Below, piece after piece: positions 19,959 through 58,348 of a stretch of 64,000 nucleotides of DNA. A model generated the notes under the pieces. It did not search any database. It had not been told where the DNA came from and was given only the letters and a program-made list of their open reading frames with translations. Made by a program: the position numbers and the translations under genes. The stretch comes from Candidatus Enterousia sp. (GTDB lineage Bacteria; Pseudomonadota; Alphaproteobacteria; Rs-D84), in NCBI GenBank assembly GCA_045614665.1, contig JAZLDI010000021.1:20108-84107 (forward strand). Direction: 5' to 3'. Within the stretch, counting starts at the first letter, position 1. Each line of letters opens with the position of its first letter.

Positions 19959-19986
19959 AAATCCCCGGCTTTGCCGGGATTTTTAT
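19957..19986. terminator. rho-independent terminator (bidirectional)
   Basis: aaaaatccccggctttgccgggatttttat. Confidence 0.6.
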
Positions 19987-20423
19987 AAATTACGATTTTG
20001 CAAGACGGCGGTAAATGTTGCCTCTGCTACCTTTTTACCAGACACCATTGCGATACCATGGAATTTGTATAATCTCATCTTGCTGGTTATTAATTCCACA
20101 TGCAATTCCAATTTGTCACCAGGATGAACCATGTGTGAAAATTTAATCTTTTCCATTGTGGTGAAATATCCCAATGTTTGGGCGGCCTCGGCTGGGTCCA
20201 TGCGTTTAAACGCAACAAAGCACGCCGTTTGTGCCAATGCCTCTACTTGTAAAACACCGGGCATAATTGGTTTGTCTGGGAAATGACCCGCGCACCAAAA
20301 TTCGTCATCGCGCACATATTTTATTCCAACCGCAGACGTATCCGAATATTCACGAATTTCATCAACCAGGCGCATATTTCCACGATGTGGGATAACGGCC
20401 TCAACCCCCTTGGCATCAATCAT
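19983..20423 (-). CDS. fabZ: 3-hydroxyacyl-ACP dehydratase FabZ
   Basis: Hotdog fold with HFPDKPIMPGVLQVEALAQ. 146 aa. Downstream of lpxD. Confidence 0.9.
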   Translation of the reverse strand: MIDAKGVEAVIPHRGNMRLVDEIREYSDTSAVGIKYVRDDEFWCAGHFPDKPIMPGVLQVEALAQTACFVAFKRMDPAEAAQTLGYFTTMEKIKFSHMVHPGDKLELHVELITSKMRLYKFHGIAMVSGKKVAEATFTAVLQNRNL

Positions 20424-20441
20424 ATTTATGTCTCCCTATGT

Positions 20442-21515
20442 CTATTTCTTTACATTCTTTTTTAACCAGGCATAGTGGCGCATAAATTCTGTGCCCGGAC
20501 CCGCCGGATAGCCCATATGTGATTGTCCATCTGGGATATTTCTGAAAACACCACTGTTTGCGCCGACCGATGCATCATTGCCGATCTTTACACCATTGGC
20601 AACGCCAACATGACCGCCCAATAATGCACGGTCACCAATTACAATGCCACCCGCCAGGCCCACGCCCGCCGCAATAAAGCATTCATCCCCGACAACAACA
20701 CCGTGTGCAATCTGACACAGGTTGTCAATTTTCGTTCCGTTTCCAATACGTGTGTCCGTCATAGCGCCACGATCAACACAGGTGTTTGCACCAATCGATA
20801 CCCGGTCGCCAATAACCACACGACCCACGTGCGGAATAAATACATTCTTGCCATTTTGACGGGTGTAACCAAATCCATCCTTGCCAATAACGGCATTTGC
20901 GTTAATTACACAGTCCGCGCCAATTGTTGCGTTTTCAATATGTGCACCGGTTTGAACAACCGTGCCCCGCCCCAGGACAACATTGCGCCCAATATATGCA
21001 TTTGGATAGATTTTGACATCCGCCTCAATCACCGCGCCACGTTCAATCGTTGCAAATTGTCCAACATAGACCGTACGTTTTTTGCGAAAGAAAACCCCAC
21101 GTGCAACATCTGCATTACGATGAATGCCAAAGCGTGGTTTTTCACGATATATTTCACCCAAGATTTTTACAATATTTCCACGTGGACTGTCCGTAATCAG
21201 CAACGTCGCCCCCGCCGGCGCATCTGCCACCTGATCTGGTTGTAATAAAATCACCGTTGCACGGGTGTTTTTCAACACATCTATCGGCAGGATTTTAAAT
21301 GCCGCACTGTTTCGTTCCGTTGAATAAAACGCCAACTGTCCTGCGCGCGCATCCGCAATCGGAGCAACGCCACGCACCGGTGCGTTTTTATCCCCTTGCA
21401 ATTTAAGACCGAATTTTTCAGCCAACGCCCCCGCCGTCGTTCTCGCAGCTTTTGGGCCAAATAAAAAAGATAGTATTTTTGACATAGCCCGATTATAGAA
21501 TAAAAAAACTGGCAT
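20442..21515 (-). CDS. lpxD: UDP-3-O-(3-hydroxyacyl)glucosamine N-acyltransferase
   Basis: Long left-handed beta-helix of hexapeptide repeats and an LpxD N-terminal domain. The start is probably the internal Met at 21485. Confidence 0.85.
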
Positions 21516-23530: not shown

Positions 23531-24196
23531 ATGGCAACAAAAACAAATGTAAATCTAGCGGCCAAAAGTTATGCAAAAACCGGCATAATTGCGGCAATTG
23601 TTATTGCGGTTGCGGCGTGTGGTGTGTGGTTGGTATCAAGCCTGAATGGTAATTCGGGGGCATCGGTCGAAGAATCAATGGAAATGGTATCGACAGATGC
23701 GGCAAATGCGTCAGACCTGCGAATCGCGGTTATTCGTATGGATGCAATTCAAAATGATGCGGTTGCATTAAAAGATTTGCGTAAACAGAAAGAAAATTAT
23801 GAATCAAAATTACGCGATGAATTGACCAAACGCCAGAAAGAATTAGAAAAAGAAAAAGCAGAAATTGAAAAATCCCAGGATGTTCTTTCTCGCGAGGCCT
23901 TGCAACGTCGTGTCGTTGATTATCAGGGTCGTGTAAATGAATTACAGCGTGATTTGAGCGAACGCGCACAGAGCATTGAAATGTCCTTCCAGAAGGCCTT
24001 AAATGATGTTCAAACAAAACATCTGGACCCGATTATAGAGGGTACAATCGCGAAAAAGAAATTATCTTTGGTCGTCGATGGTCGTTTTGCACGTACGGGT
24101 GCCGATGCGGCAAATCTGGATATCACAGACGAGATTGTAAAAGCACTTGATAAAAAAGTGTCCAAGGTAAAAATGGAAACCCCAAAAGGGTTCTAA
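23531..24196 (+). CDS. skp: OmpH/Skp-like periplasmic chaperone
   Basis: Signal anchor followed by a long charged coiled-coil (KDLRKQKENYESKLRDELTKRQKELEKEKAEIEK), typical of the OmpH family. 221 aa. Confidence 0.55.
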   Translation: MATKTNVNLAAKSYAKTGIIAAIVIAVAACGVWLVSSLNGNSGASVEESMEMVSTDAANASDLRIAVIRMDAIQNDAVALKDLRKQKENYESKLRDELTKRQKELEKEKAEIEKSQDVLSREALQRRVVDYQGRVNELQRDLSERAQSIEMSFQKALNDVQTKHLDPIIEGTIAKKKLSLVVDGRFARTGADAANLDITDEIVKALDKKVSKVKMETPKGF

Positions 24197-34153: not shown

Positions 34154-35488
34154 TTATTTTGTTCTGTTTATGCGTCCGGTCAGCAACCACCACAATTGTT
34201 GTGCACAACTTGTTTGTTCATTGATTTTACGCAAATGATCAGGGTCACCATTAACATAAAAAACACCTTTCATTAAATTGCGTGCTGGTTTGTCAATTTC
34301 TTTTGGTGCGCCGTTTATTTCTGCAATTGTTTTTCGAATATCACTACGGATGTTTTCGATATTTTGTTTTTGGGTTACACCTGAACACAAATCTTCTGTT
34401 TCGCGCTGAATCATATGTTTTAATTTCTTTGATGGTTTTATTGTATCATCTGTGGCGAAACGCGCAGACGAAAATACAGTTGGTTGTAAATCAACCAATT
34501 GTGCCATTTGTTGATGCAACGAAATAACCTCATTGTTTGCTTCTGCGATTGCCTGGGGCAGGGAATGATGAATTAGCTTGTCCAGTTTTTGTTCGCGTTC
34601 TTTTTGTTTTTTGCTTATTTGCCCGACCGATTTTGGTGCGGTTACCAGACCGAATTTTTTGCCCGGCACAATTGCACGTGATGCTAAATGATTGCGATAT
34701 GTCTTGCGCAGGTTTTGCAGTCTTGATAATCTAAGTCCCAGCATTACGCGACGAAATGCCCACCAAACGGTTTCGTTTGCAATTTTGTGCATACGTTCGT
34801 TTAAATATTTTGGTGGCATTTGTCCCGAATCCATCACGCCTTGGATCAGAATTGCATTCTTGTCCAGCATTGGTCTTGTTGGTGCGTGTTTGCGTGCAAA
34901 TGGGGGCAGCATACCAAAATCATATGCGTGAATATTCTGGATGGTGGTCATATATTTTTCGTGTTTTTCCTGACTAACACCGGTCGGTCTATTGTATTGA
35001 AAGAACTTCATTCGTTCATAAAGATTGTCGTCTGGTTCCGCCTCTTTGCCATTCAGTAAATCGCCATAAAGCCCAAAAATTAAATCAAATGAAATATCTG
35101 AAACAAAGGCGCCACGTGGGGGTTGATTACCCATAATTTTATCAGAATGCATTGCAATTCGATTGTCGTTTCCAATGGCAATAAATTTGTATCCCGATGG
35201 CGCAAATTTATTCATACACGCCAAGATAAGGCGCATATCAAATACGTCCATTTGTTTCTTGATTTCTTTTAGAGCCTCTGCTTTTTGTTCTTTAGCGCGC
35301 TGTGCCGCAACGCGTTTAGCTTCTCTACGTGCATTGTGTTCTGGGTCGCGTGACTGCGTTGGGTTGTCAACATACATCATGCGGCACACACGTTTTTTTC
35401 CCTCGTATACGCGTTTGCGCAACATCATACCGCCAACGGTTGGCTGTGATACAATATTATCTGTTTTGCTTTCAATATTTTCGGTCAT
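34154..35488 (-). CDS. hypothetical cytoplasmic protein (444 aa, no recognisable domain)
   Basis: Long uninterrupted ORF adjacent to tRNA-Val. Charged and helical, no signal peptide or TM. No family recognised. Confidence 0.5.
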   Translation of the reverse strand: MTENIESKTDNIVSQPTVGGMMLRKRVYEGKKRVCRMMYVDNPTQSRDPEHNARREAKRVAAQRAKEQKAEALKEIKKQMDVFDMRLILACMNKFAPSGYKFIAIGNDNRIAMHSDKIMGNQPPRGAFVSDISFDLIFGLYGDLLNGKEAEPDDNLYERMKFFQYNRPTGVSQEKHEKYMTTIQNIHAYDFGMLPPFARKHAPTRPMLDKNAILIQGVMDSGQMPPKYLNERMHKIANETVWWAFRRVMLGLRLSRLQNLRKTYRNHLASRAIVPGKKFGLVTAPKSVGQISKKQKEREQKLDKLIHHSLPQAIAEANNEVISLHQQMAQLVDLQPTVFSSARFATDDTIKPSKKLKHMIQRETEDLCSGVTQKQNIENIRSDIRKTIAEINGAPKEIDKPARNLMKGVFYVNGDPDHLRKINEQTSCAQQLWWLLTGRINRTK

Positions 35489-38069: not shown

Positions 38070-38369
38070 ATGGATATGGAAACTTTAATGGCCCAGGCCG
38101 CCGAATTACAAAACAAAGTTGCCGCAGCTCAGGAAGACTTAGCCAAAACCGTTGTAAAGGGGATTGCTGCAAATGGTGCGTGCATTGTTGATATGACCGG
38201 TAAATATGATTTGGTTAATGTCGTTATTCGTCCTGATGCATTGGCGGGCGGTGCGGATGCGGTTGCGAAAATCGTTGCAGACGCATACCGTGATGCCAAA
38301 AGCAAGGCCGATGATTTAATCGATCGTGTTATGGGTGATGCCACCAATGGTGTAAATTTACCAATGTAA
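38070..38369 (+). CDS. ybaB: YbaB/EbfC nucleoid-associated protein
   Basis: Typical 99-aa YbaB pattern (…LMAQAAELQNKVAAAQEDLA…). Confidence 0.8.
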   Translation: MDMETLMAQAAELQNKVAAAQEDLAKTVVKGIAANGACIVDMTGKYDLVNVVIRPDALAGGADAVAKIVADAYRDAKSKADDLIDRVMGDATNGVNLPM

Positions 38370-38398
38370 AAAAAATCCCGCTGTGTGGCGGGGTTTTT
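38368..38398. terminator. rho-independent terminator (bidirectional)
   Basis: aaaaaaaatcccgctgtgtggcggggttttt. Confidence 0.6.
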
Positions 38399-39074
38399 AT
38401 CGTGCCGGCGCAATACGCAATTCAATCCGCCGATTGGTCAGGCGTCCGATACCATCCTGGGCGGCAATGGGGCGTGTAGCTCCGCGCCCAACAATAAACA
38501 TACGTGTTGTGTTAATTCCGTGTTGTGCAAAATATACACCAACGCGTTGGGCCATATCTGATGACAGTGCATTTGCCGCCGATGTATTTTGCATTGCATC
38601 GGTATAGCCTGCAACTTCGATAAATGTTGCGTCAAATTTCTTTAATATTTTGCTGATTCTTTTTAATGTATCATCGCCGGTTGCGGATATTTGCGCAGCG
38701 TTTAATTCCATAATCGCATCCCGTACCAGAATTACAACAATCTCTGTCCCTGCGCGTTGAACGGAAATTCCTGGCTTGCGCAGACCGTCATAAAGTGCAA
38801 ATTCCAATTCAGACATATATTTAATAATTCGTGCATTGTCATTGGTTAATTTGTCGCCGTATTCGGAAACAGGTATCGTAACATCATCGTTTAATACCAT
38901 GCGTCCACCCGCCCCCAAATATACGGGGCGTTTTGCAACACGGGCCGTATCGGTCATATCTGTAAAGCTGGCCCCATTCAGGTATTGCATCCAATTTTCG
39001 CGTACCGGACTGACATACGGTGCACACGCCACCATCATTCCAATTAAAAATAAAGACGCAATTTTTTTATGCAT
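38397..39074 (-). CDS. OmpA-family lipoprotein (C-terminal OmpA/MotB peptidoglycan-binding domain)
   Basis: Lipobox MMVACA. C-terminal OmpA-like domain (AGYTD…NRRIEL). Last gene of the dnaX-pilin-ompA transcription unit. Confidence 0.7.
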   Translation of the reverse strand: MHKKIASLFLIGMMVACAPYVSPVRENWMQYLNGASFTDMTDTARVAKRPVYLGAGGRMVLNDDVTIPVSEYGDKLTNDNARIIKYMSELEFALYDGLRKPGISVQRAGTEIVVILVRDAIMELNAAQISATGDDTLKRISKILKKFDATFIEVAGYTDAMQNTSAANALSSDMAQRVGVYFAQHGINTTRMFIVGRGATRPIAAQDGIGRLTNRRIELRIAPAR

Positions 39075-39536
39075 TTATTGAACGATAAAAGAAATTTGAT
39101 TCGTTGGTGTTGAAAAACATCTGTCTGAGTTATCCAGAACCTCGTACCCGTTAATCAGCATTGCCGCCGACCATTGTGGTTTTGTGGTTTGGAAATAAGA
39201 GCATTCGCCCTGGGTTAATTCGGTCAGATTTATTGAAAAGGATTCGCCATCTGTGCTTGCTGTGACGGACCAATTGTCGCCACCCAATGGCGCCTTGTCA
39301 GATTTTAATGCGCCCGCCTTTATTAAATAGTCAACCGATACACCCGAATAATCGCCACGCATTTCCATCAATAATTTAACATCACCTGCAATTTGTTCCA
39401 GTTGCGATGTGGCTATTGTACGGGCATTGTTTTCTCGCATCATACGATACATACCAATTGCCGCCGCCGTCATAACGGTTCCGATTGCAATAACGCCAAC
39501 AATTTCAATCAAAGAACGTCCAGATTCATATCTCAT
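39075..39536 (-). CDS. type IV pilin / pseudopilin-like protein (153 aa)
   Basis: Leader MRYESG then RSLIEIVGVIAIGTVMTAAAIGMY: Gly at -1, Glu at +5, 20-residue hydrophobic helix. C-terminal Cys pair (CSYF…DRCF) like a pilin D-region. The start overlaps the dnaX stop (ATGA). Confidence 0.6.
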   Translation of the reverse strand: MRYESGRSLIEIVGVIAIGTVMTAAAIGMYRMMRENNARTIATSQLEQIAGDVKLLMEMRGDYSGVSVDYLIKAGALKSDKAPLGGDNWSVTASTDGESFSINLTELTQGECSYFQTTKPQWSAAMLINGYEVLDNSDRCFSTPTNQISFIVQ

Positions 39537-41140
39537 TATTTCACCCCTACGATTTCTGCGTTTTCAAATAAACTCATTGCGCTGGCAATCATTGGATCGG
39601 CGGCCAATTCTTCTTGTTTTTGTTCGGTAATTGTATGTGTGTGTACCGTTTCGGTCGCGCGTTCCAGTTGCCATTGTTTTCCGGTTTTGTCCATCAGCCA
39701 CGACGCCAACCGTGGTGCAAAATCTGCATCCCCACGTCTGTCAAAGTATTTGATTTTGCCATCCGTGATTTCTGCAACCTCTATGTTGCTAGAATAATAA
39801 GAGTACAGTAATATTTCCTTGGACTCTTGTAATAATTGTGCCAGTTCCACTGCGGTTGTAATTTGTGGCTTTTCCGGCGTGGCGGATACTGGTTGTGCTG
39901 GCGTTCCGCCATGATTGCTTAATGCGTCCCGTACCGCTCCAACATTTGGACGGGGGGCGTCATTTTTTTTTATCAGTTCTGCGACCGTTGGCATATCTGC
40001 AACATGCATCATACGTACAATCAGCATGTCAAAGCATTGCTTTTGATTGCCACTGGCCTGCATTTCTGGGACGGCGGCAACCATAACCTGCCATATGCGG
40101 GACAAGGTATTTAATGTTGCGGTCTTGTTAATTTCGCGAATTTGATTTCGTTGGTCGGCGGTATATGGGGAATTTGTTACGTCGCCCGCATGCAAGCTTG
40201 GGTGCATACGTGTTGCCCAATGCGTCCATTCCATCATATCCAATAACAACATAGACAAATCAGCGCCGTTATTATAGATGGCGTCAACCTTGTCCAGTGC
40301 CGCCGCTGTATTTCCAGATAAAACCGTTTTCATAAAGTCAACCACGACCCCACGGTCTGCACGTTTAAGCATGTCTAGAACCGCCGCCTCGTCTACGTGG
40401 CCACCGGTTTGCGCTATTGCCTGGTCCAGTAATGATAATCCGTCGCGAACCGAACCATCGGCTGCGCGTGCCAATAATTCATTCGCGGCATCTGATAATT
40501 CAACTTGCTCCTGATCTGCTACCCATGCGAAATGTTTTTTCAGTGTATCAACCGGAACGCGCATCAAATCAAACCGTTGGCAACGTGACAAGATTGTAAC
40601 CGGAACCTTTCGGATTTCGGTTGTCGCTAAAATGAATATAACGTGTGCTGGTGGTTCTTCTAGTGTTTTAAGCAACGCATTAAATGCACTGGTTGATAAC
40701 ATATGGACTTCGTCGATAATATAAACCTTGTACCGACCGTTTGTTGGGCGATATTGCGCCGCATCCAGAATGTCACGCATATTATCAACGCCAGTATGTG
40801 ATGCTGCGTCGATTTCCATAACGTCAATATGTTGGCCCGCCGCAATTGATTTACAGTTTTCACAAACGCCACACGGTGTTGCAGTGGCCTTGTCCGACGA
40901 TAAACAGTTCAAGGCCTTGGCCAGGATACGTGCCGTACTGGTTTTTCCAGTTCCGCGAATTCCGGTAAAAATATACGCATGCGCAATGCGTCCTGTATTA
41001 ATTGCGGTGGTTAATGTTTTTACCAAAACTTCTTGGCCGATAAGGGTTTGAAAATCTTGACTGCGATATTTACGCGCTAAAACGGTATAATTGCTATCCA
41101 TACTAAAACTTCCTTTTGATATACAATAGCAAACCCGCAC
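39536..41140 (-). CDS. dnaX: DNA polymerase III subunits gamma/tau
   Basis: AAA+ clamp-loader (GIRGTGKTS Walker A, zinc module C..C..C..C, SRC motif). 534 aa. Confidence 0.9.
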   Translation of the reverse strand: MRVCYCISKGSFSMDSNYTVLARKYRSQDFQTLIGQEVLVKTLTTAINTGRIAHAYIFTGIRGTGKTSTARILAKALNCLSSDKATATPCGVCENCKSIAAGQHIDVMEIDAASHTGVDNMRDILDAAQYRPTNGRYKVYIIDEVHMLSTSAFNALLKTLEEPPAHVIFILATTEIRKVPVTILSRCQRFDLMRVPVDTLKKHFAWVADQEQVELSDAANELLARAADGSVRDGLSLLDQAIAQTGGHVDEAAVLDMLKRADRGVVVDFMKTVLSGNTAAALDKVDAIYNNGADLSMLLLDMMEWTHWATRMHPSLHAGDVTNSPYTADQRNQIREINKTATLNTLSRIWQVMVAAVPEMQASGNQKQCFDMLIVRMMHVADMPTVAELIKKNDAPRPNVGAVRDALSNHGGTPAQPVSATPEKPQITTAVELAQLLQESKEILLYSYYSSNIEVAEITDGKIKYFDRRGDADFAPRLASWLMDKTGKQWQLERATETVHTHTITEQKQEELAADPMIASAMSLFENAEIVGVK

Positions 41141-41181
41141 TAAATTTCAACAAATAAAGTATGAAAAAGCGATGAATTTTA

Positions 41182-41538
41182 TCAGTTTAAATTTGTAATA
41201 AAATCAGGAAACGGACTTTCTTCTTCGTCTTCTTTGTCGGCGGTATTGTTGGCCTCTGCTTCTGCGATTGCTTTTTCGGCGGCGGCCTTTTCTTTGGTGT
41301 CGCGACTGGAATCAATTTTGCCCTGTTCTGCATTTACCATACGACCATAATGTTCGGCTGCCTGCAACAGGCGTTCGCGTTCAATTTCATCCGGTGTCTG
41401 GCGTGCCTGGTCGATGTACTGTTTTCTTCTTTGACGCCATTTATGACAACGTTGAATCATTTGTCCGACATTGGATTGATTTTTTTTATTTTGCATATTA
41501 AGTCTTTTGTTAAATGGAAAGTTTTTTATCAATTTCAC
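41182..41538 (-). CDS. small basic/acidic hypothetical protein
   Basis: ORF upstream of and co-oriented with dnaX. Lys/Arg-rich N-terminus, acidic C-terminus. The start is possibly the internal Met at 41496. No family recognised. Confidence 0.35.
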   Translation of the reverse strand: MKLIKNFPFNKRLNMQNKKNQSNVGQMIQRCHKWRQRRKQYIDQARQTPDEIERERLLQAAEHYGRMVNAEQGKIDSSRDTKEKAAAEKAIAEAEANNTADKEDEEESPFPDFITNLN

Positions 41539-41643: not shown

Positions 41644-42999
41644 TTGCGTAAACAATCAGGTAATTTTTTAGTCCAGGCGTTATTGGCATTAACATTGATT
41701 TTTGCCTTTATACCATTTATTGCGACGCAACTTGCGGCCCGTAATATTGATGCGCAAATGTATTCATCAACACGCCAGATTGGCAATGCCTCTACCGCGG
41801 CACGTATATTTATTCGCGAAAATGCACGACTGATTTCGTATGGGCAAACGGTTGTTGCCGGGGACGATTTTGCGGATTTGTTGGAACCATATGGGTTGCC
41901 ACTGGGGTTTGTACCGCGTACCCCCATGGGACAGGATATAATTTTGGTTATCAATAAAACGCCAACGGATGTGTCGGCATATTTGGATGTGACTGGTGGT
42001 GGTTTGTCTGAATTAAAGTTGGCTGAATTGGCGCGCAGAATTGGTTTCTATGCGACGTCAATTGATAATGGTGTGCGTGTTGGAATTGTGTTAACCGATG
42101 ACTATTCTGACATTGTTCGTCGGAACGAACCGGACCTGGACAACAGTGGTTTTTTAACAGACATAGATATGGGGAATTTTTCATTTCGTAATGCGGGCAA
42201 TGTGTTTGCATCCGGTGGTGATTTTAATACTGCCCAGTTTACAACCCTTTCGATTGTTGGTACTGAATCTGGTCGCAAGGCGCAAAATGATATAAAAAAT
42301 ATTACCGCCAACAAGACTGTTTTTCAAAGCCGTACGGGTGAGGCTGCCTTGGCTCTGTCGCGTGGAACGTTGTTGTTGGGGACACTGGATGCGCGTACGG
42401 TTTCCAAGTTTGGTGATATGGGAAGCTTTACGGCAAATTCTGCGGCTGTTTATGATTTTTCCATGACGGCTGGACGTACAGCATTTACGGGTCCGGCCAA
42501 ATGGAATGTTCATGGTAATGTTGCATCAAACAAGATGAATTTTAGTGTAGAGCGCCTGGATATAGATTCGCATCTAAACGTTACCCGTGGTCAGGACGTT
42601 TTTATCGACGCCGATACATTGGAATACAGTACAAAAAGCGGGATAGAGGCAGGTACTGTTTATGCGTCCAATATTACTGTTCGTGATCAGACGTCCCAGG
42701 GGTTGTCTGGTGGCTCGTCGGGTGCAACGATTTTGGATATTCGTCCGGCGGGTGTATCTTTATTGCCAGATGTTTTGGTTGATTCTGTTAATAACGACAA
42801 TTTTAAAATTCTAAAAAGTCCAGATGCTGATAACGGCGATACAATTACATGCAAAGACATCATTGTTGATTTTGGTGGCGTTTATAATTCCAAGTCTTTG
42901 GCCCATAATTTAATTTGCCAGTATGTTTTTTGGCAGCGTCTGGAACACAGAATCAAAATAAAACAATGTTTAATGGCGGGTGGCAGTGACTGTATTTAA
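41644..42999 (+). CDS. large prepilin-type N-terminal domain protein (451 aa), paralog 1
   Basis: TTG start. 6-aa basic leader MRKQSG then NFLVQALLALTLIFAFIPFIATQLAA (Gln at +5). Shine-Dalgarno-like AGGGGG upstream. The rest is Thr/Ser/Gly/Asn-rich and predicted beta. C-terminal Cys residues. Confidence 0.55.
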   Translation: MRKQSGNFLVQALLALTLIFAFIPFIATQLAARNIDAQMYSSTRQIGNASTAARIFIRENARLISYGQTVVAGDDFADLLEPYGLPLGFVPRTPMGQDIILVINKTPTDVSAYLDVTGGGLSELKLAELARRIGFYATSIDNGVRVGIVLTDDYSDIVRRNEPDLDNSGFLTDIDMGNFSFRNAGNVFASGGDFNTAQFTTLSIVGTESGRKAQNDIKNITANKTVFQSRTGEAALALSRGTLLLGTLDARTVSKFGDMGSFTANSAAVYDFSMTAGRTAFTGPAKWNVHGNVASNKMNFSVERLDIDSHLNVTRGQDVFIDADTLEYSTKSGIEAGTVYASNITVRDQTSQGLSGGSSGATILDIRPAGVSLLPDVLVDSVNNDNFKILKSPDADNGDTITCKDIIVDFGGVYNSKSLAHNLICQYVFWQRLEHRIKIKQCLMAGGSDCI

Positions 43000-44191
43000 A
43001 ACAAAAATTTTTACAGATGAAAATCGTGGCGCCAGTGTTATGGAAGTCTTACTGGCGCTGGGGATTGTTGCGCTGGCGACACCGTTTGTGTATTCCCAAA
43101 TTTCGCGCAGCACCCAAACCGTACGCGATATGGCGCACGCAAAACAAATTATGGATGTTCGTGATAATGTTTTGAACTTTGTTCGTATGAATCAGGACAA
43201 ATGGCCAGATGTTGCACAAATAAGATTAGATGAAGATGAATTGCGCGCAATATCTGATGTGCCGGTTGCGGGATTGATTGATAAATATTCTGTGCGTGGT
43301 GCGACAATAACGGATGTGTATTTGGCGTACGAAATCGGTGATGATTTAATGACGACCGCGCGTATTGCGTCGCATATTGGCTCTGATGCGGCAGTTGTGT
43401 CTGATGATGGTGTGGCGTATGGTCCGTCTTGGGCGGCGGCGGCACCGGATTTTGCACCGGGTGATTTGGTTTATCGTATAACACGTGATGTGTCTGGATC
43501 GGATACGTCGCGATATTTACATCGTGCAACATCGGGCGAAGACAAATTAAATGTCATGTTCCGTGATTTAAATATGGGGGGCTACAATGTATACAATACT
43601 GCGTCCATCCTTGCTGATTCGGTGCGTTCAAATAATGCCACTGCATTTTTTGTAAACGCAGACGATATCGCGGCGGAAAATGTATACTTTTCATCTGGGG
43701 CAAATATGGATGGCGGCGATGTCTTTATTAACAGTATGCGTGTGTCTGGGGATATAACTGGCTTTAAAAATATTTATGCTGATAAAATGAATGGTACTAC
43801 ATACACAACATCTGGTCGTATTATCGCGGACAAGGCAACGGTTGCAAATTCTATAAATATTTCGCGTGACTTGATTTTGAAATCAGATTCGACAAAAACA
43901 ATAAGTGGGTTTACAGGTATTACAACCGGGACGGTTTTGGCGCCATTTTTATCAACCGAAGAAATTGTTTTTTACGAAGATTTCGGCCTAACGGTATCTG
44001 GTGAATTGTTAATGTCAACGGTTGCGCCGTTACAGATTGGGCGTTGGGTATTTCCATCAACGACACCTCCGCGTTTTTCACAATTTACCATATCGCGTAC
44101 AACCAATCCATCTATGCCAGATGTGTCAGAATTTAACGCGATAATGAAATCTGGCTGGATGCAGACTGAAACAATAATACCAACGGAATAA
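42980..44191 (+). CDS. large prepilin-type N-terminal domain protein (403 aa), paralog 2
   Basis: GTG start overlapping the paralog 1 end. ...DENRG then ASVMEVLLALGIVALATPFV (Glu at +5). The post-helix region aligns with paralogs 1 and 3 on a Q…I…V..(F/Y)(V/I)RxN pattern. Confidence 0.55.
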   Translation: MAVTVFKTKIFTDENRGASVMEVLLALGIVALATPFVYSQISRSTQTVRDMAHAKQIMDVRDNVLNFVRMNQDKWPDVAQIRLDEDELRAISDVPVAGLIDKYSVRGATITDVYLAYEIGDDLMTTARIASHIGSDAAVVSDDGVAYGPSWAAAAPDFAPGDLVYRITRDVSGSDTSRYLHRATSGEDKLNVMFRDLNMGGYNVYNTASILADSVRSNNATAFFVNADDIAAENVYFSSGANMDGGDVFINSMRVSGDITGFKNIYADKMNGTTYTTSGRIIADKATVANSINISRDLILKSDSTKTISGFTGITTGTVLAPFLSTEEIVFYEDFGLTVSGELLMSTVAPLQIGRWVFPSTTPPRFSQFTISRTTNPSMPDVSEFNAIMKSGWMQTETIIPTE

Positions 44192-44192
44192 A

Positions 44193-45524
44193 ATGACAAA
44201 AAGATACGGTATTTTTTCTGATTTTATGCATAACCCTGCTCGTGGCAGCATGCTTGTTGAATTACTGCTAAGTGTGGCGTTGGCGGCATTGGTGATTCCT
44301 TTTATTTTTCAGTATCACCAAAATGCAGCTGTTCGTACCCAGAATATTGCAATAACACAAAATATGAACGCGGTTCAAAATGTTCTGGAGCGGTATATCG
44401 TTGAAAATCGTACCGATTTACTGCGTACTGTTGGAAAAAATATTACGCGTGTAAATATTGCAGACTTAACAGAATATGGTTTGTCACCAACTCTTGTTCA
44501 GGATGCTGATAAATACCAGTTGCGCATCTTAAAGTCAACTGACACCACGGGCAGCGCGACATTACAAGGTGTTGTTGTTTATACATCATCGGATATTACA
44601 CCAATTCGTACCCGCGAAATTGTAAACATTGGTGGGGCGAATATGGGGTTTGTTGATGGTACGCGTGCGTATGGCGCATATGGTGCGTGGCGTAACGATA
44701 TTTCTGATATCGGCATCGATGCCCGTGATGGTATTGTCGGCACCACATCGGTAAAGCGTGATGCTGCATTATATCTGTCACGTTTACCGTCTGATAATAT
44801 TGACGATGCAACAATGATGTCGCCGTTTAATCTTGGGGGGCACGATATTATAAATGCTCGGTTCTTTGATGCGTCTACTATTCAATTTGCAGAAGATTTG
44901 AATATAAAGTCTGGTGTGGTTCGTGACTTGATATTTCAAAATCGCACAGCGATTGACACAACGTATACGTCTGAAACTGCAACAGTCTCGGGTGGTTTGT
45001 CGTCAGATGGTCGTACAATGGAAATTTCTGGCAAGTTTCTTCTTGCAGACGTGGGCAAGTTTTCATCATTCACAGTAGGTGATTTGTGGACATCGACGAT
45101 GACATTGTCTGGATTGTCGATCAGTGCATATGATGAATATTATCGCGAACAGCCCGCAATATTAAAGATTGCTGGATCTTTGGATATGACGGCGGGGCGC
45201 ATAGAATCGCTTTATACAACGGTTGGTTTTGCAGGGTCGATTACACCACGTTTGGTTGTGTATGATCGTATAGAGGATTCTAAAAATTCTGATTATTATT
45301 GGGATGTGGATAAATCGTCGGCAAACTTTGCGGACGTGACATTAGCGGAACTTAATCGCTTGGCAACATTGGCGGCGCATTTCGAGAAGGTTCCCGGTAC
45401 AGACAGCGCTACCTTGTTTGGTGGTGTGACCGCGAACAAGAATGCGACGGCGGCGGATTTTATGAATGCTATTCGTGAAATTCAGACCCGTGTTCGTGCG
45501 AAATATCGCCTGTTGAATTTGTAA
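44193..45524 (+). CDS. large prepilin-type N-terminal domain protein (443 aa), paralog 3
   Basis: ATG 1 nt after the paralog 2 stop. ...HNPARG then SMLVELLLSVALAALVIPF (Glu at +5). An alternative internal ATG gives a 7-aa leader MHNPARG. Confidence 0.55.
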   Translation: MTKRYGIFSDFMHNPARGSMLVELLLSVALAALVIPFIFQYHQNAAVRTQNIAITQNMNAVQNVLERYIVENRTDLLRTVGKNITRVNIADLTEYGLSPTLVQDADKYQLRILKSTDTTGSATLQGVVVYTSSDITPIRTREIVNIGGANMGFVDGTRAYGAYGAWRNDISDIGIDARDGIVGTTSVKRDAALYLSRLPSDNIDDATMMSPFNLGGHDIINARFFDASTIQFAEDLNIKSGVVRDLIFQNRTAIDTTYTSETATVSGGLSSDGRTMEISGKFLLADVGKFSSFTVGDLWTSTMTLSGLSISAYDEYYREQPAILKIAGSLDMTAGRIESLYTTVGFAGSITPRLVVYDRIEDSKNSDYYWDVDKSSANFADVTLAELNRLATLAAHFEKVPGTDSATLFGGVTANKNATAADFMNAIREIQTRVRAKYRLLNL

Positions 45525-47582: not shown

Positions 47583-50500
47583 TTGGGAATGTCATTCTTG
47601 AAAAAAACTGTTAGTATGTTGGCTGTTTTCGCCGTATTTCCGGCGGCTTTTGCGGTGACTGCGCGTCCCAGTGTGATGAACACTGTAACGGCAACATCGC
47701 GTCGTTTGCCGACGTTGACTGCGTATATTAATTCTGCGACTTCATCAACATCGACGACAACGTCTTCATCGACAATGTCAGATACCGAATGTGTTGAAGC
47801 GTATACCGAATGTATGAAGGGCGAAGATGCCTGTGGTCCAGAATTCGAAGAATGTACAACCCGTAAATTGTTTCACGGTAAAATGCCGGTGTGCTTGAAT
47901 GTTTTATCACAGTGCTCGTCTGCTGGTGTTAATGATTTGTTTGGGACGTCTGCGATTTCTGCGCTTGGTAATATCAAGACCACGGATTCTGCGACGGGTG
48001 AAATTTTGGATTATACATACCCAACCGATGGCAGTGCGATGGGGCAATGGGTGTCGGCGGCGGCCATTAATAACCAGTATGATACATCGACATGTGTGAA
48101 ACGTTATACGTCCTGCTTGAACAAGGAAAGTGTTTGTGGTGCCGATTTTGAATTGTGTACATCTACCAAAGATTTCAAGAAACAAGCTTTGTTTTGTGAT
48201 TCAACATTGGCTCGTTGTCAAAGTGCAGGGGTACGCGAACTGTTTGGTGTATATCCATGGACTCCGTCCAGTGCGTCAATTGGTGGTCGTGTGGCGTCTA
48301 TGATTGAAGATGGGGCACAATTGGCGGCGATGAATGCGGTTTCAACGTGTTACAAGGTTGTGGAACAGTGTTTCTTGGGTGCGTGTACGGCCAATCCGTT
48401 CCGTTGTATTGAGGGGGCAACTCTCGAAACTGTAACGGCGGCGAATTTGGCGTCTGAAACATCGGAAAATGCAACGGCTGTATCTGCGTCTGGTGATGTT
48501 TTATCTAAAAGCGATGTTAATCGTTATTTAAAAACATCTTGTTTGGATACAATTGGTGCAAATAAGTATTGTCATATGACGTTCCGTGAAAAAACACCGA
48601 CCAAGGGCGAATTGTCTGATGTCGAAGCTCAAGAAGAAGTGTTTGAGGCGGCAATTGACCAACGTAAAAAATACGTTGATTCTAAAATCCAAGACATAAT
48701 GCAGAAATTTGACACCCGTGCCAAGAACAAATGTTCTGAAACAATTCGTTCATGTGCAATGCGCACCTGTGGCGAAGGGATTGGTTCTGTATGCTATACA
48801 TCTGTATTTAATGGTTCCAATGAATCTATTAACAAAGAATCTACATATGCCCAGATAAAACGCGGTTGTGAATCGATTGTTAATACCGACACAAATTGTC
48901 AGTATGCGTATGCCTCTGTCAAGAACCAGGCCTATTCCTATGCATACTTAAATGACGGGGTGTTTGATACATTGTTCCCGGTATATGATGAAACAACCAA
49001 GTCCGATCCAATTGGTGTTGTTGCATCGTTAAATGCGACATTGTCTAATAATTACAGTATGGCTGCAATTGCAGAGATGAAAAAACAATGCCAATCCGTC
49101 GCGACCAGTTGCGTCAAGACGATGTGTGGTACGGACTATGTAAATTGTTATCGCAATCGTACGGATATTGTTGGCGATTTAACACAAACAGGCGATGCTG
49201 ACTTTGATAAATCAATGAACAAAGCTGGTGGTGTTCTGGATTACACAATCGTATTGGGGCTGTGTATGAACACGGTAAAGGCGGCCGATGTTTGTGATGA
49301 GCATCTTAAAATCGAACAGGCTCGTTTGGCCCAGGGCGCAAATCTTAGCAACAGCTGGGGTGAATCGGCATCTGTGCGTGATGGCTGGATTGATGCTGGC
49401 GGTGCCAAGTCTGTAACGGTTGATACCGAAACAGTTCAAAAGGTTGATGCCAACGGTAATAAAATCTGTGCCAATTCCAAGGGGTACGAGGGTATTTGTT
49501 ACCAGGTTGACAACGATGGCGACGTATATGATGAACCGGTTATGGAATCATATAAAACATATCTGACGAACCAGTCTGCGACCACATTGTTCCGCGAACT
49601 GTTAAGCGATATTGAATACGAGGCCCAGGCAAAATATAACGCCAAACTGACCAAACAGCAAAATATGTGTATGTCGGCAAATTCTGGTGGTGTAATGGGT
49701 AAAAATGATTTGGCCTCTACATTTATGTGGGCGAAATTAAAGAACAACAAGGTTCCGGCCAATTACGCAACGGCCGGTCTGAAACCAAACCAGGTTGTGG
49801 CCAGTAATGAATTGTATGGTTCTTTCTGTCGGGTACGTGTAAACATTCAATCCGACGACAAAGATATCCAAGATGCCATTAACAAGGGCGCAGATTGGGC
49901 AACGGCATACTTTGCCGCCGGCGACGCCTTTACCTGTGGCAGCTGGATAAGTGGCAATGATTTGGAAAAAATTGCCGAAGTCGTTGGCAAGGACGCCCGT
50001 GCGGATAAAGAAAAGACCCAGGCTAAAAATCTTGAATGGTGGTTGGCGCCAATCGCCGCGATTGGAACGGGTGTTGGTGGCGCATACCTGGGGGCGGGCA
50101 TTGCAAACGGTGACGTATTTGGCAAACTGTCCGGTCTGAATTCAAACAAGAAAGATACGAATTCAGTAGAAGCCAGTCAAAAGGGTTGCAAAAACAGTAT
50201 TGATTCTGCAACGACTATATTAGGGTCCAGCGACAACAAGGATTATGGTATTATTGAAATGCATGTAAATGCCGCGATTACAAGCGCAAAAAAACTAGAT
50301 TTGCCAACAACTACTGTAGAAGGATACTTAAAAACATATAAAGAAAAGGTTGATGCATATAAGAGTGATGCAAACAAGAAAACAGAGGCTGAAACCGCTA
50401 ATGAAAACCTGAAAAATGGCTTAGGCGCGTTGAAAAATTTGTGTGAGGCGGGAAGCAACAATGAAGAAGAAAATTCTGCCAAGAAAACGCAAACGGCGGC

Positions 50501-50705
50501 GGGGATAACCGGTGCAATAACGGCGGTTGGCGGTGGCATAATGACATTCTTTGCGACCAAGGCGATTAAAAATGCCATCCTGGACAAGGCCGAACAAGAG
50601 GCATATGATACCTTTATGAATGAAATTGGTAATCATATCTACTGTTACATCGGCGGTGAAGAGGCCGGTCAATACGGCGACGTCATTGCCACCAGTATGG
50701 AATAA
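47583..50705 (+). CDS. large secreted cysteine-rich repeat protein with C-terminal membrane anchor (1040 aa)
   Basis: Signal peptide (…FPAAFA), Ser/Thr-rich linker, about 50-aa Cys-rich modules in at least two clear copies plus degenerate ones, two C-terminal hydrophobic segments. No recognised family. Confidence 0.65.
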   Translation: MGMSFLKKTVSMLAVFAVFPAAFAVTARPSVMNTVTATSRRLPTLTAYINSATSSTSTTTSSSTMSDTECVEAYTECMKGEDACGPEFEECTTRKLFHGKMPVCLNVLSQCSSAGVNDLFGTSAISALGNIKTTDSATGEILDYTYPTDGSAMGQWVSAAAINNQYDTSTCVKRYTSCLNKESVCGADFELCTSTKDFKKQALFCDSTLARCQSAGVRELFGVYPWTPSSASIGGRVASMIEDGAQLAAMNAVSTCYKVVEQCFLGACTANPFRCIEGATLETVTAANLASETSENATAVSASGDVLSKSDVNRYLKTSCLDTIGANKYCHMTFREKTPTKGELSDVEAQEEVFEAAIDQRKKYVDSKIQDIMQKFDTRAKNKCSETIRSCAMRTCGEGIGSVCYTSVFNGSNESINKESTYAQIKRGCESIVNTDTNCQYAYASVKNQAYSYAYLNDGVFDTLFPVYDETTKSDPIGVVASLNATLSNNYSMAAIAEMKKQCQSVATSCVKTMCGTDYVNCYRNRTDIVGDLTQTGDADFDKSMNKAGGVLDYTIVLGLCMNTVKAADVCDEHLKIEQARLAQGANLSNSWGESASVRDGWIDAGGAKSVTVDTETVQKVDANGNKICANSKGYEGICYQVDNDGDVYDEPVMESYKTYLTNQSATTLFRELLSDIEYEAQAKYNAKLTKQQNMCMSANSGGVMGKNDLASTFMWAKLKNNKVPANYATAGLKPNQVVASNELYGSFCRVRVNIQSDDKDIQDAINKGADWATAYFAAGDAFTCGSWISGNDLEKIAEVVGKDARADKEKTQAKNLEWWLAPIAAIGTGVGGAYLGAGIANGDVFGKLSGLNSNKKDTNSVEASQKGCKNSIDSATTILGSSDNKDYGIIEMHVNAAITSAKKLDLPTTTVEGYLKTYKEKVDAYKSDANKKTEAETANENLKNGLGALKNLCEAGSNNEEENSAKKTQTAAGITGAITAVGGGIMTFFATKAIKNAILDKAEQEAYDTFMNEIGNHIYCYIGGEEAGQYGDVIATSME
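47787..48249 (+). repeat. intragenic tandem repeat encoding 8-Cys modules (ECVEAYTECMKGEDACGPEFEEC… and TCVKRYTSCLNKESVCGADFELC…)
   Basis: Two roughly 53-aa segments with identical Cys spacing, both ending …CxSAGV(N/R)(D/E)LFG, separated by about 48 aa. Confidence 0.5.
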
Positions 50706-56220: not shown

Positions 56221-56250
56221 AAATCACCCGCAATGCGCGGGTGCTTTTTT
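56219..56250 (+). terminator. rho-independent terminator after murG
   Basis: aaaatcacccgcaatgcgcgggtgctttttt. Confidence 0.55.
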
Positions 56251-56327
56251 ATTTTGATTCCAGTCTATTTTTCCGCTTGCACCAAAATCGTTATTTGTTC
56301 TATGATGATAACGGAAGGAAAGGAATT

Positions 56328-57635
56328 ATGCGTCATATAACTGTATCAATTTTTGCGTTTTTGCTTGCAGTGCCTGCGTTTGCGGATGCAAGGTTGCCGG
56401 TTGTAAACCTGGCGGCCGCTGGGATTTCTGCACGTGCCGCATTCGGAGAGAGTGTACCAACATCAAAAAAACAATTGCCAAAACGGAATGTTGTTGCGCG
56501 TCCTGCGGTTCAGCGTGTTGCCACCCCTGCAAAAATGGCGAATGTGACGGCGACCACGGTTGGCACATCGAATGATATATTGATTCCAAATCGCCCCAGC
56601 AATGATTTATGGGCGCATAATTCTACAAATTTGAACGCATCTGTTGATGCGCCACTGCGTATGCCGACACCATCTGAATTTGCGGTTTATCGCAGTGATG
56701 AAATTTTACCAGAAGAAAGTCTGGATGTTTCTACAATGCCAAAGACGTACGCGTATAATGATGATGCGCCGGTTGTTCCGGCACGCACCGCGGCGGCAAA
56801 AAAAACTGAATTGGATGCCCAGATTGAACGCCTGGTTGAATTACAGCGTCGTGCCGACGAAAGTGTTACGCCAACCAATGTTGCGCCACGCGTGATTGCG
56901 CGCCCAGTGGTTGATGAACCAATTGCGCCACGTGTAGATGATGTACGTGTTGCCGTGGCGGAAGTAATACCCACAGAAACCGTAAATGTGCGTCGTATGG
57001 TTGTGCCAATGGAAACACAGGATGTTATTGTGCGCAGTGTTGAAAAAAATCAATCCCCACGCATTGCAGCGGTGCGCGATGATATGACAAAACTAAGCCC
57101 GTCTGAATTACGTCGTGCATTTCGTAAAACATTCCTGTCGGAAAATAAACATTTATCCACATACCAAATGGATGATTCCTTTGATGTGGTCAGCGATATG
57201 GGCTCGTCATCCGGTTCATTTACATCTTCTCGTGATTTAAGCGAGGATGCAGGCATTCGTCCATTGGAAATAAAAATTAATTTCCGCAATGATGATTCGT
57301 CTTTGTCGCGTGATAACTATAATTTGTTAAGTGAATATGCTGCAATCGTTGTTCATAATCCAACGCGTGCGATTCAGATTGCAATTCCAGCACGCACAAC
57401 GACCGATGTGGATGCGCGAAAATTAACGGCACGCCGTCTGGCTATTGTTGAACAGGTTTTACGTGATACAGGTGTGTCAATGCAACGCATTGTTCCTGTG
57501 TTGTCGCAACGTGACGAAGATGGTTTTGTTTTACGTGTGATATCTAATGAGCAGTATGAAAGCTTGTCCCAGCAAAAACGTAATATCTTTGGCGATACAG
57601 TTTCATCCAAGAAGTATAAAAGTTTAACGTGGTAA
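56328..57635 (+). CDS. secreted Pro-rich protein with degenerate C-terminal OmpA-like domain
   Basis: AAGGAA Shine-Dalgarno motif plus ATG at 56328. Signal peptide MRHITVSIFAFLLAVPAFADA. Pro/Val-rich linker. The C-terminus aligns to the OmpA_C pattern but lacks the GHTD motif. Confidence 0.45.
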   Translation: MRHITVSIFAFLLAVPAFADARLPVVNLAAAGISARAAFGESVPTSKKQLPKRNVVARPAVQRVATPAKMANVTATTVGTSNDILIPNRPSNDLWAHNSTNLNASVDAPLRMPTPSEFAVYRSDEILPEESLDVSTMPKTYAYNDDAPVVPARTAAAKKTELDAQIERLVELQRRADESVTPTNVAPRVIARPVVDEPIAPRVDDVRVAVAEVIPTETVNVRRMVVPMETQDVIVRSVEKNQSPRIAAVRDDMTKLSPSELRRAFRKTFLSENKHLSTYQMDDSFDVVSDMGSSSGSFTSSRDLSEDAGIRPLEIKINFRNDDSSLSRDNYNLLSEYAAIVVHNPTRAIQIAIPARTTTDVDARKLTARRLAIVEQVLRDTGVSMQRIVPVLSQRDEDGFVLRVISNEQYESLSQQKRNIFGDTVSSKKYKSLTW

Positions 57636-58348
57636 AGACCTGGTTAAAATCTGTTGTTGAATTTTTGTTTCCGCCGGCGTGTCCATTATGTGGTACGCCG
57701 GTGTCTGTTCATGGTGAATTATGTGCTGATTGTTGGACGTCATTTAATTGGATAGATGGTGCAAAATGTATCCGCTGTGGTTATCCGTTTATGGTTGATA
57801 TGGATAACGCAATGTGTTCGGTATGTGCGTCGGGTAAATGTGAGCTGGATTGGATACGGTCGGCGTGTGTTTATGATGATGCGTCACGGATGGCGATGCT
57901 GCTATTTAAGCACAGTGGTCGTATTTCATATGCATACTTTATGTCGCGTGCGATGATTTGGGCACTGCGTGATATTGATGTGTCAGATATAGATTTTGTT
58001 ATGCCGGTGCCATTGGCGCGTCGTCGCTTGTTTCATCGTGGTTATAACCAGGCAACATTACTTGCGCGGCCAATTGCACGCGCGTTGGGATTAAAATTGG
58101 ATTATGATTCGGTGCGCCGTAAATACAGGCGTGATATGGGGCACTTAAATTCACACCAGCGTGCACAAAACATTCATGGTGTGTTCAGTGTTTTGTGTCC
58201 AGCAAATATACGTGGTAAAAATATCTTGTTGGTCGATGATGTTATGACGTCTGGCGCGACATTTTCAGAATTGCGCCGTGTGTTAATCAAGGCTGGTGCT
58301 AAAAAAGTCTATGGTGTGACTTTTTGTCGTGTCGTTCATTCTACTTAA
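57629..58348 (+). CDS. comF: ComF family phosphoribosyltransferase-domain protein
   Basis: N-terminal double CxxC zinc finger and a C-terminal PRTase motif (LLVDDVMTSGATF). 239 aa. Confidence 0.75.
   Translation: MVKTWLKSVVEFLFPPACPLCGTPVSVHGELCADCWTSFNWIDGAKCIRCGYPFMVDMDNAMCSVCASGKCELDWIRSACVYDDASRMAMLLFKHSGRISYAYFMSRAMIWALRDIDVSDIDFVMPVPLARRRLFHRGYNQATLLARPIARALGLKLDYDSVRRKYRRDMGHLNSHQRAQNIHGVFSVLCPANIRGKNILLVDDVMTSGATFSELRRVLIKAGAKKVYGVTFCRVVHST

Follow-up and report, generated by a model that had tools for sequence, protein, structure and literature searches.

A type IVb-like pilin gene between dnaX and an OmpA-family lipoprotein gene in Candidatus Enterousia and related gut Alphaproteobacteria

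Why should the gene of a pilus subunit lie directly behind dnaX, the gene of a clamp-loader subunit of DNA polymerase III? The question is raised by a 64,000-nucleotide (nt) stretch of a Candidatus Enterousia genome (contig JAZLDI010000021.1; hereafter the window). A sequence-only reading of it had noted that dnaX is followed by a small pilin-like gene and by the gene of an OmpA-family lipoprotein, and had proposed that the three form one transcription unit, with a coupling not described before. Our literature search yielded no paper describing a dnaX-pilin operon, in line with that last claim, and the dnaX-pilin-ompA order is both real and previously undescribed in the literature searched. 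The explanation that we favour, with a probability of roughly 60%, is that a divergent type IVb pilin gene was captured into a dnaX-led operon by operon fusion during genome reduction. The unit comprises the following elements, given with the analyses from which they were assigned (aa, amino acids):

41123 to 41150, minus strand: predicted sigma-70-type promoter, TTGAAA, 16 nt, TG-extended TATTGT (promoter scan and conservation).
39536 to 41101, minus strand: dnaX, DNA polymerase III tau/gamma clamp-loader subunit, 521 aa (Pfam, NCBIfam, public gene calls).
39075 to 39536, minus strand: type IVb-like pilin, 153 aa (sequence features, fold, profile homology).
38397 to 39074, minus strand: OmpA_C-domain (YiaD/PA0833-like) peptidoglycan-binding lipoprotein, 225 aa (PF00691; YiaD and PA0833 profile matches).
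38369 to 38392, minus strand: predicted intrinsic terminator hairpin (CCCGCCACACAGCGGG plus T-run), bidirectional and common to the convergent ybaB (terminator scan).

The identity of dnaX was unambiguous. Its product matched the Pfam families DNA_pol3_delta2 (PF13177), DNAX_ATPase_lid (PF22608), DNA_pol3_gamma3 (PF12169), and DUF3646 (PF12362), as well as the NCBIfam models PRK09111 (604.6 bits, cut-off 604) and TIGR02397 (428 bits, cut-off 250); it contains the AAA+ clamp-loader domains I-III and the alphaproteobacterial C-terminal domain. The maximal open reading frame (ORF), 39536-41140, begins with a GTG at 41140, and the gene had at first been drawn to that position. Translation most probably begins with the ATG at 41101, because public contigs with an identical 153-aa protein have 521-aa dnaX calls and because homologues align from that methionine. 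The stop codon of dnaX (TAA, 39538-39536) does overlap the start codon of the pilin gene, but the 4-nt ATGA overlap first reported turned out to be a 1-nt overlap (TAATG), the last base of the stop being also the first of the ATG. The last dnaX codons, GTA GGG GTG AAA TAA, contain the Shine-Dalgarno sequence (SD) of the pilin gene. The pilin stop directly abuts the ATG of the lipoprotein gene (TAAATG, 0-nt gap), as had been read.

Sequence and predicted fold identify the 153-aa protein as a true type IV pilin, belonging structurally to class IVb. No match was found for it in Pfam or NCBIfam, so its identity had to rest on profile and fold comparison. Its N-terminus, MRYESG/RSLIEIV, has Gly-1 at 39519-39521, Arg at +1, and Glu+5 at 39504-39506, and continues into the hydrophobic alpha1-N segment. 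A BLASTP comparison with the bundlin-like major pilin of a plasmid-borne type IVb operon gave 28% identity over 155 columns (E 3e-8), and hhalign of the family profile against the same pilin gave a probability of 97.8% (E 7e-13, 150 columns), with both cysteines and the C-terminal strand aligned. As a tblastn query, the plasmid pilin gave 41 matches in related loci (numbered with an L here), among them the L066 pilin gene and the array of tandem pilin genes in L094/L095. A faint match to PF08805 (PilS) was seen on a distant family member (P0167), while a profile search of PDB sequences gave weak N-terminal matches only, to geopilin, TcpA, and PilA. The AlphaFold2 model (mean predicted local distance difference test score, pLDDT, 76.6; predicted template-modelling score, pTM, 0.66) comprises a helix (residues 8-60) followed by a four-stranded sheet. 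When it was compared with the PDB using Foldseek, the first 15 matches were all type IVb, and pilins alone were found among the significant matches. The best was the TcpA filament (8uhf; E 1e-4, template-modelling score 0.72-0.75), followed by CofA (9iuf, 3s0t) and Salmonella Typhi PilS (1q5f). Sequence features, fold, and profile homology therefore agree with the original view of the protein as pilin-like, which was to be abandoned if it failed to model as a pilin.

The family is large, with 461 homologues at E <= 1e-3. Identity was 60-96% among the 120 matches listed, and those with a source name all came from metagenome-assembled genomes (MAGs) of uncultured Alphaproteobacteria or unclassified bacteria. 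Gly6, Glu11, Cys112 (39201-39203), and Cys140 (39117-39119) were invariant in an alignment of 40 homologues; in 30 diverse homologues, with identity down to 26%, the first three were still invariant and Cys140 nearly so. The C-terminal cysteine pair, first compared to a pilin disulfide loop, aligned with that of the bundlin-like pilin and may form a disulfide. The protein is nevertheless a variant and not a canonical IVb member: the leader has 6 residues and the mature protein about 147 aa, both outside the textbook sizes, and position +1 is occupied by a nearly invariant Arg. In type IV pilins this residue, which is N-methylated after cleavage, is typically Phe, or Met, Leu, Val, or Ser in the type IVb class.

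The downstream gene encodes an OmpA-family lipoprotein, as the sequence-only reading had stated. It matched PF00691 with 53.6 bits (cut-off 27.2), and its N-terminus, MHKKIASLFLIGMMVAC, carries a lipobox (ending in MVAC) with Cys17 at 39024-39026; this cysteine and the residues of the peptidoglycan-binding motif were invariant in the alignment of the OmpA lipoproteins. The best PDB profile matches were YiaD (2k1s, E 2e-23) and PA0833 (6jfw). With the YiaD equivalog model NF053611, which takes in a glycine-zipper N-terminus, the score was 93.9 bits for a cut-off of 175, the match being confined to residues 83-221, and the OmpA_C domain is preceded by a conserved, clade-specific N-terminal region of about 65 aa. 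Such a protein would anchor the outer membrane to peptidoglycan, and it probably acts either in the envelope surrounding the pilus or in the cell envelope at large. A role where the pilus passes the envelope is suggested by the constant partnership of its gene with the pilin gene; a general role is equally possible, because ompA also regularly precedes skp-lpxD-fabZ.

A synteny search for dnaX-pilin adjacency had been put forward as a check. We scanned one genome per species, which returned 80 related loci. Those with informative titles came from Candidatus Enterousia sp. or from Alphaproteobacteria/Rickettsiales MAGs of ruminant, human, mouse, and termite guts, and the remaining ones were labelled uncultured proteobacterium, one with a Muribaculaceae bin label. 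dnaX, pilin, and ompA were found in the same order and on the same strand in 91/91 loci where all three could be scored, so the arrangement is far beyond chance. Pilin identity across these loci had a maximum of 97% and a minimum of 29%, and that of dnaX did not fall below 58%; of the three, the pilin evolves fastest. The distance between dnaX and the pilin gene was -1 to 29 nt. The TAATG overlap was present in 34 loci, with the SD (GGGGT or GGAGT) inside the last dnaX codons (encoding VGVK before the stop), while the other 57 had a gap of 0 to 29 nt, and most of these had an SD of their own, GGGGGG or AAGGA in most spacers. The pilin-OmpA distance was -4 to 40 nt, and 0 in 39 loci.

Both flanks of the triplet rearrange. 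The DUF4167-like gene upstream was not the neighbour in 16 of 82 distinct loci, nor was skp the downstream neighbour in 15 of 83, the window included. In the window the flanking features are:

41182 to 41538, minus strand: DUF4167-like gene, 118 aa, upstream neighbour of dnaX (ORF list).
38070 to 38369, plus strand: ybaB, convergent with the dnaX unit (PF02575).
41644 to 45524, plus strand: three large pilin-like genes, 451, 403, and 443 aa, divergent from dnaX and outside its transcription unit (class-III-type leaders).

As had been noted, the dnaX-ybaB-recR order, which is the canonical operon order of most bacteria, was not present: ybaB is convergent, and no RecR domain was found in any window ORF of >=110 aa scanned with Pfam (a few short ORFs fell outside the scan). 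Distant members of the pilin family lie away from dnaX, in L090/91 (between a murA-like gene and amiC), in L094 (the tandem array), and in L096. In the latter, a T7-like prophage (capsid, nozzle, terminase; L096:1-9945) lies directly upstream of the pilin homologue P0141, which is followed by a DEAD helicase gene and skp-lpxD-fabZ, with neither an ompA gene nor dnaX at the locus.

The comparative evidence supports a single dnaX-led tricistronic transcription unit, in which the three genes would be co-transcribed, as the sequence-only reading had supposed. A regular-expression scan located the element TTGAAA-N16/17-TG(C/T)TAT(N)(N)T just before dnaX in about 86 of 88 related loci, irrespective of which gene precedes it. 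In the clade it is followed by about 10 nt, then AAAGGAAG, then the dnaX ATG; in the window the SD AAAGGAAG stands after the predicted promoter, about 8 nt before the ATG. In many loci a hairpin terminator separates the DUF4167-like gene from this promoter. The GC-rich terminator hairpin after the OmpA gene of the window (38377-38392 with its T-run) folds at -9.5 kcal/mol before its T-run, and the terminator scan gave no terminator-like site at the dnaX/pilin or pilin/OmpA junction of the window. Nor was a conserved promoter signature found before the pilin or OmpA genes, internal matches being sporadic or due to conserved codons; in the related loci, a stretch of 300 nt before the pilin ATG held no conserved sigma-70-like or clade-signature motif. 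A conserved internal promoter or terminator separating the genes, which would have counted against one unit, was thus sought and not found, and the gaps were short in the 91 loci. Two candidates were rejected as promoters. The recurrent TTGAAA..TAAAAT before the pilin ATG arises from conserved codons (LFENAEIVGVK) and ends 2 nt before the ATG, so that an mRNA starting from it could not carry an SD. The TTGTTATA motif inside ompA (at about +800) is encoded by a conserved Val-Val-Ile-Leu stretch (VVVILVRD segment). A related extended -10 element (TTGCTATACT or TTGTTATAGT) was seen after OmpA and before skp in about 60 of 88 loci.

Genes for an assembly machine were found in relatives, and in the window no PilB, PilC, PilD, or secretin gene was seen. 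In three Enterousia loci (L037, L038, and L043), on the same strand past OmpA, we found skp/ompH followed by genes for a PilO-family protein (PF06864), a 234-aa protein, a T2SSE ATPase, and a T2SSF platform protein. In L099-L101, genes for PilO, a PilP-like protein, the ATPase, and the platform protein lie between lpxK-lpxC and gyrB; here the PilP-like protein, of 223 aa and with both a signal peptide and a coiled coil, corresponds to the 234-aa protein. The core spans L037:9995-14660 and L099:8072-12707. The ATPase was 85-100% identical among the 120 matches listed, and those with a source name came from alphaproteobacterial MAGs; among plasmids, its best relatives were ATPases from the type IVb pilus operons of conjugative plasmids. 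In one of these operons (NZ_CP098224), genes for PilO2, a small protein, the ATPase, and the platform protein follow one another, colinear with the Enterousia core, with identities of 34% for the ATPase (E 4e-90), 31% for the platform protein (E 2e-59), and 23% for PilO (E 1e-9). Apart from PilO, Pfam searches gave no useful match for unannotated genes next to the ATPase cluster. A 321-aa neighbour of PilO resembles a beta-barrel outer membrane protein and not a secretin.

The three large pilin-like proteins have the leaders G/NFLVQ, G/ASVMEV, and G/SMLVEL and no Pfam match. Their genes are conserved in the clade and adjoin dnaX in most loci, but in about 16 of 82 they lie elsewhere or are missing; in L073/L074 they lie downstream of ompA in the direction of the dnaX unit, and several loci have none within 8 kb. 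The AlphaFold2 model of the 403-aa protein was confident for residues 18-167 only, an N-terminal pilin-like domain (pLDDT <35 for the C-terminal 230 residues), and Foldseek gave no match to it, leaving a relationship to PilV, TcpB, or CofB unproven. We take their size to recall the large minor pilins of type IVb systems, namely these three. They probably belong to the same filament, as minor or tip pilins.

These data can be assembled into the following picture. Enterousia belongs to the order Rs-D84, the genomes of which are smaller than 1 Mb, have a coding density of about 90%, and lack a respiratory chain; the order is also without nucleotide biosynthesis and has been proposed to depend on partner cells (PMC12306168). 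The same metabolic survey reported type IV pili for another lineage only and does not mention them for Rs-D84 (PMC12306168). The dnaX, pilin, and lipoprotein genes would form one operon, read from the conserved sigma-70-type promoter just upstream of dnaX, and this operon would be a fixed feature of the reduced-genome order. The pilin and lipoprotein genes would have lost, or never had, a promoter of their own, and would be constitutively expressed with a growth-linked housekeeping gene, ribosomes initiating on them through SDs in the last dnaX codons or in very short spacers. The prepilin would be inserted into the inner membrane, cleaved after Gly6 by a peptidase, and polymerised into a type IVb-like filament by the PilO/PilP/ATPase/platform machine encoded elsewhere in these genomes. 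The 153-aa pilin is probably the major subunit, and the large pilin-like proteins would be minor or tip subunits. Operon fusion is the most economical origin of this arrangement, because assembly genes are also lodged among skp, lpxC, and gyrB and because distant pilin relatives are not beside dnaX. After fusion, breakpoints inside the unit would be forbidden, since the genes behind dnaX lack separate promoters. As to the coupling of the pilin to the clamp-loader gene in the sequence-only reading, the genetic linkage is indeed fixed, while a functional or physical link between clamp loader and pilus is unsupported, and the housekeeping-embedded machinery points to operon fusion instead.

Several observations speak against this picture. 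Major pilins are normally far more abundant than DnaX, which fits poorly with one shared promoter, and a weak or non-canonical internal promoter may exist inside the unit. The third-codon-position entropy was 0.62-0.65 over the last 60 dnaX codons, compared with a mean of 0.71, though this dip is within the gene-wide range (0.55-0.83) and does not clearly point to a regulatory element embedded there. Arg is an uncommon +1 residue for prepilin peptidase substrates, and the N-terminal helix of the pilin model has a low pLDDT (47-60). The assembly core is known here from relatives, not from the genome to which the window belongs. About 1.4 Mb of related loci yielded neither an A24 prepilin peptidase nor a secretin; in these loci, queries with E. 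coli GspD and GspO, a plasmid type IVb secretin, an A24 peptidase, TcpQ, and a transglycosylase gave no match. Finally, selection for co-expression could be the reason why the triplet is never broken, which would amount to a functional link, though an unproven one.

The last point leads to a first alternative, which we consider unlikely: that synthesis of the pilin and the lipoprotein is deliberately tied to dnaX expression, the filament being made in step with replication or growth. It could then be a cell-cycle-coupled attachment pilus of a partner-dependent bacterium, or a DNA-uptake pilus feeding a cell unable to make nucleotides, and the lack of nucleotide biosynthesis and presumed partner dependence of Rs-D84 (PMC12306168) suit both versions. 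The triplet is unbroken in 91 loci while both its flanks rearrange, it has a single conserved promoter, the TAATG overlap of 34 loci is typical of translational coupling, and the window contains a ComF-family gene. However, the overlap is not universal, 57 of the 91 loci having a gap and most of these their own SD, and breakpoints inside an operon are counter-selected anyway, since they would cut the genes behind them off from the promoter. Elsewhere in the clade, pilus genes lie beside lpxC, gyrB, or skp, and thus do not reveal a specific replication theme, and the distant family members mentioned above are not beside dnaX. ComF-family genes are also widespread in non-competent Alphaproteobacteria.

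We find it equally doubtful that the genes are mere neighbours, the pilin gene, with or without ompA, being mainly transcribed from a separate promoter concealed within the 3' coding region of dnaX. In favour of this, strong promoters dedicated to the major pilin are the usual case, there is a mild dip in synonymous diversity across dnaX codons 460-517, and the promoter scan showed a promoter-like hexamer pair inside the pilin gene (39301-39273). Yet the 300 nt before the pilin ATG contain no conserved motif, the sole recurrent match is the codon-derived one that ends 2 nt from the ATG, and synonymous diversity in the dip stays within the range of the rest of dnaX.

A more demanding proposal is that the pilin is made only via clamp-loader transcription, often with TAATG coupling, and that this hard-wires the filament to replication or growth as a selected design. 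We regard it as rather improbable; if it were true, the filament would serve partner-cell attachment or DNA scavenging, and the arrangement would have been selected and not be a by-product of compaction. It is very unlikely that the 153-aa protein is no filament subunit at all, but an uncleaved bitopic inner-membrane tether acting with the OmpA lipoprotein, or a short pseudopilin of secretion or DNA uptake: the atypical Arg +1, the peptidase and secretin not located in related loci, and the constant pairing with a peptidoglycan-binding lipoprotein, often followed by the skp-lpxD-fabZ envelope genes, are outweighed by the end-to-end homology with a type IVb major pilin, cysteine pair included, the exclusively type IVb structural matches, the type IVb-specific PilO2-family protein, ATPase, and platform protein of the clade, the three large pilin-like genes nearby, and the fast evolution of the pilin relative to dnaX and OmpA, as is seen with surface pilins.

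The rest of the window is a dense housekeeping run, with mreB, parAB, lptD/F, nusA-infB, pnp, and the mraY-ftsW-murG part of the cell-wall synthesis cluster. In most relatives skp and lpxD-fabZ are directly 3' of ompA; in the window, skp (ompH; 23531-24196, plus strand) and lpxD-fabZ (19983-21515, minus strand) are 15-18 kb from ompA and on opposite strands, so that a rearrangement must have placed the terminator and the convergent ybaB-pnp block after ompA. Among the annotatable genes, three ORFs had no Pfam family: 538 aa at 2772-4388 (minus strand) and 464 aa at 56241-57635 (plus strand), both at a threshold of E<0.01, and 444 aa at 34154-35488 (minus strand), at E<0.001. A 1040-aa ORF without a Pfam match (47583-50705, plus strand) lies 3' of a 166-aa ORF and of the gene for an RluD-like pseudouridine synthase; at the distant locus L094 its position is taken by an AsmA/YhdP-like gene, downstream of five tandem small pilin genes. 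The ComF-family gene (57629-58348, plus strand), after mraY-ftsW-murG, encodes a double zinc ribbon and a phosphoribosyltransferase domain. A relation to DNA uptake is conceivable, though the gene is common in Alphaproteobacteria. Short intergenic repeats, CACTAA(C/T)CAC / AGTGATTAGT, were seen in L069, L072, L074, and L085 (upstream of dnaX) and at L093:2358-2399; they may form a small dispersed repeat family.

Taken by itself, the dnaX-pilin-ompA order reveals no new mechanism, and compaction explains it better. What gives it weight is that Rs-D84 is a widespread uncultured lineage of animal and human guts, suspected of living off other cells, and that it appears to carry a divergent, unannotated type IVb pilus system, with a PilS/bundlin-like pilin, three large pilin-like proteins, and a PilO2-like/PilP-like/ATPase/platform core. 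The predicted filament is a plausible organelle for attachment to partners, its genes being dispersed into essential housekeeping operons. Under the operon-fusion reading, the dnaX-pilin-ompA operon is a clean case of genome reduction fusing unrelated functions under one promoter. The gene order and the promoter signature together make a precise clade marker, and the signature could serve for promoter mapping across Rs-D84 genomes.

The locus can be compared with four known systems. With the canonical dnaX-ybaB-recR operon it shares a dnaX that heads a short operon of small downstream genes, but these are here a pilin and an OmpA-lipoprotein gene, and ybaB is convergent, or elsewhere in relatives. 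The lipoprotein resembles those of the YiaD/PA0833/DotK type in its lipobox cysteine and its C-terminal, peptidoglycan-binding OmpA_C domain (about 140 residues); it differs from them in falling below the YiaD equivalog cut-off, in its clade-specific N-terminal region, and in its fixed operonic partnership with a pilin gene.

The pilin itself resembles the type IVb major pilins BfpA (enteropathogenic E. coli), TcpA (Vibrio cholerae), CofA (enterotoxigenic E. coli), and PilS (S. Typhi and the IncI plasmid R64). Like these, it has Gly-1 and Glu+5 in a class III signal, an N-terminus of the SLIE type, a beta-sheet after a long alpha1 helix, and a conserved cysteine pair that brackets the variable C-terminal region. 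Type IVb leaders have about 13-30 residues, whereas the leader found here has only 6, as in type IVa pilins; Arg stands at +1, the mature protein has about 147 aa rather than about 180-200, and the gene is chromosomal, behind dnaX and apart from the assembly genes.

A further comparison is with the type IVb operons of plasmids and integrative and conjugative elements (R64 pilL-V, PAPI-1 pil2, NZ_CP098224). Their genes for the PilO2, PilP-like, ATPase, and platform proteins are colinear and homologous with those of Enterousia, although in the Enterousia loci searched a secretin, an A24 peptidase, a TcpQ-like protein, and a lytic transglycosylase were not located. Genes of PilV-like size are also found near the Enterousia pilin gene, but there are three paralogous large pilin-like genes instead of one shufflon-varied PilV, and the Enterousia genes are scattered over at least 3 chromosomal sites among housekeeping genes.

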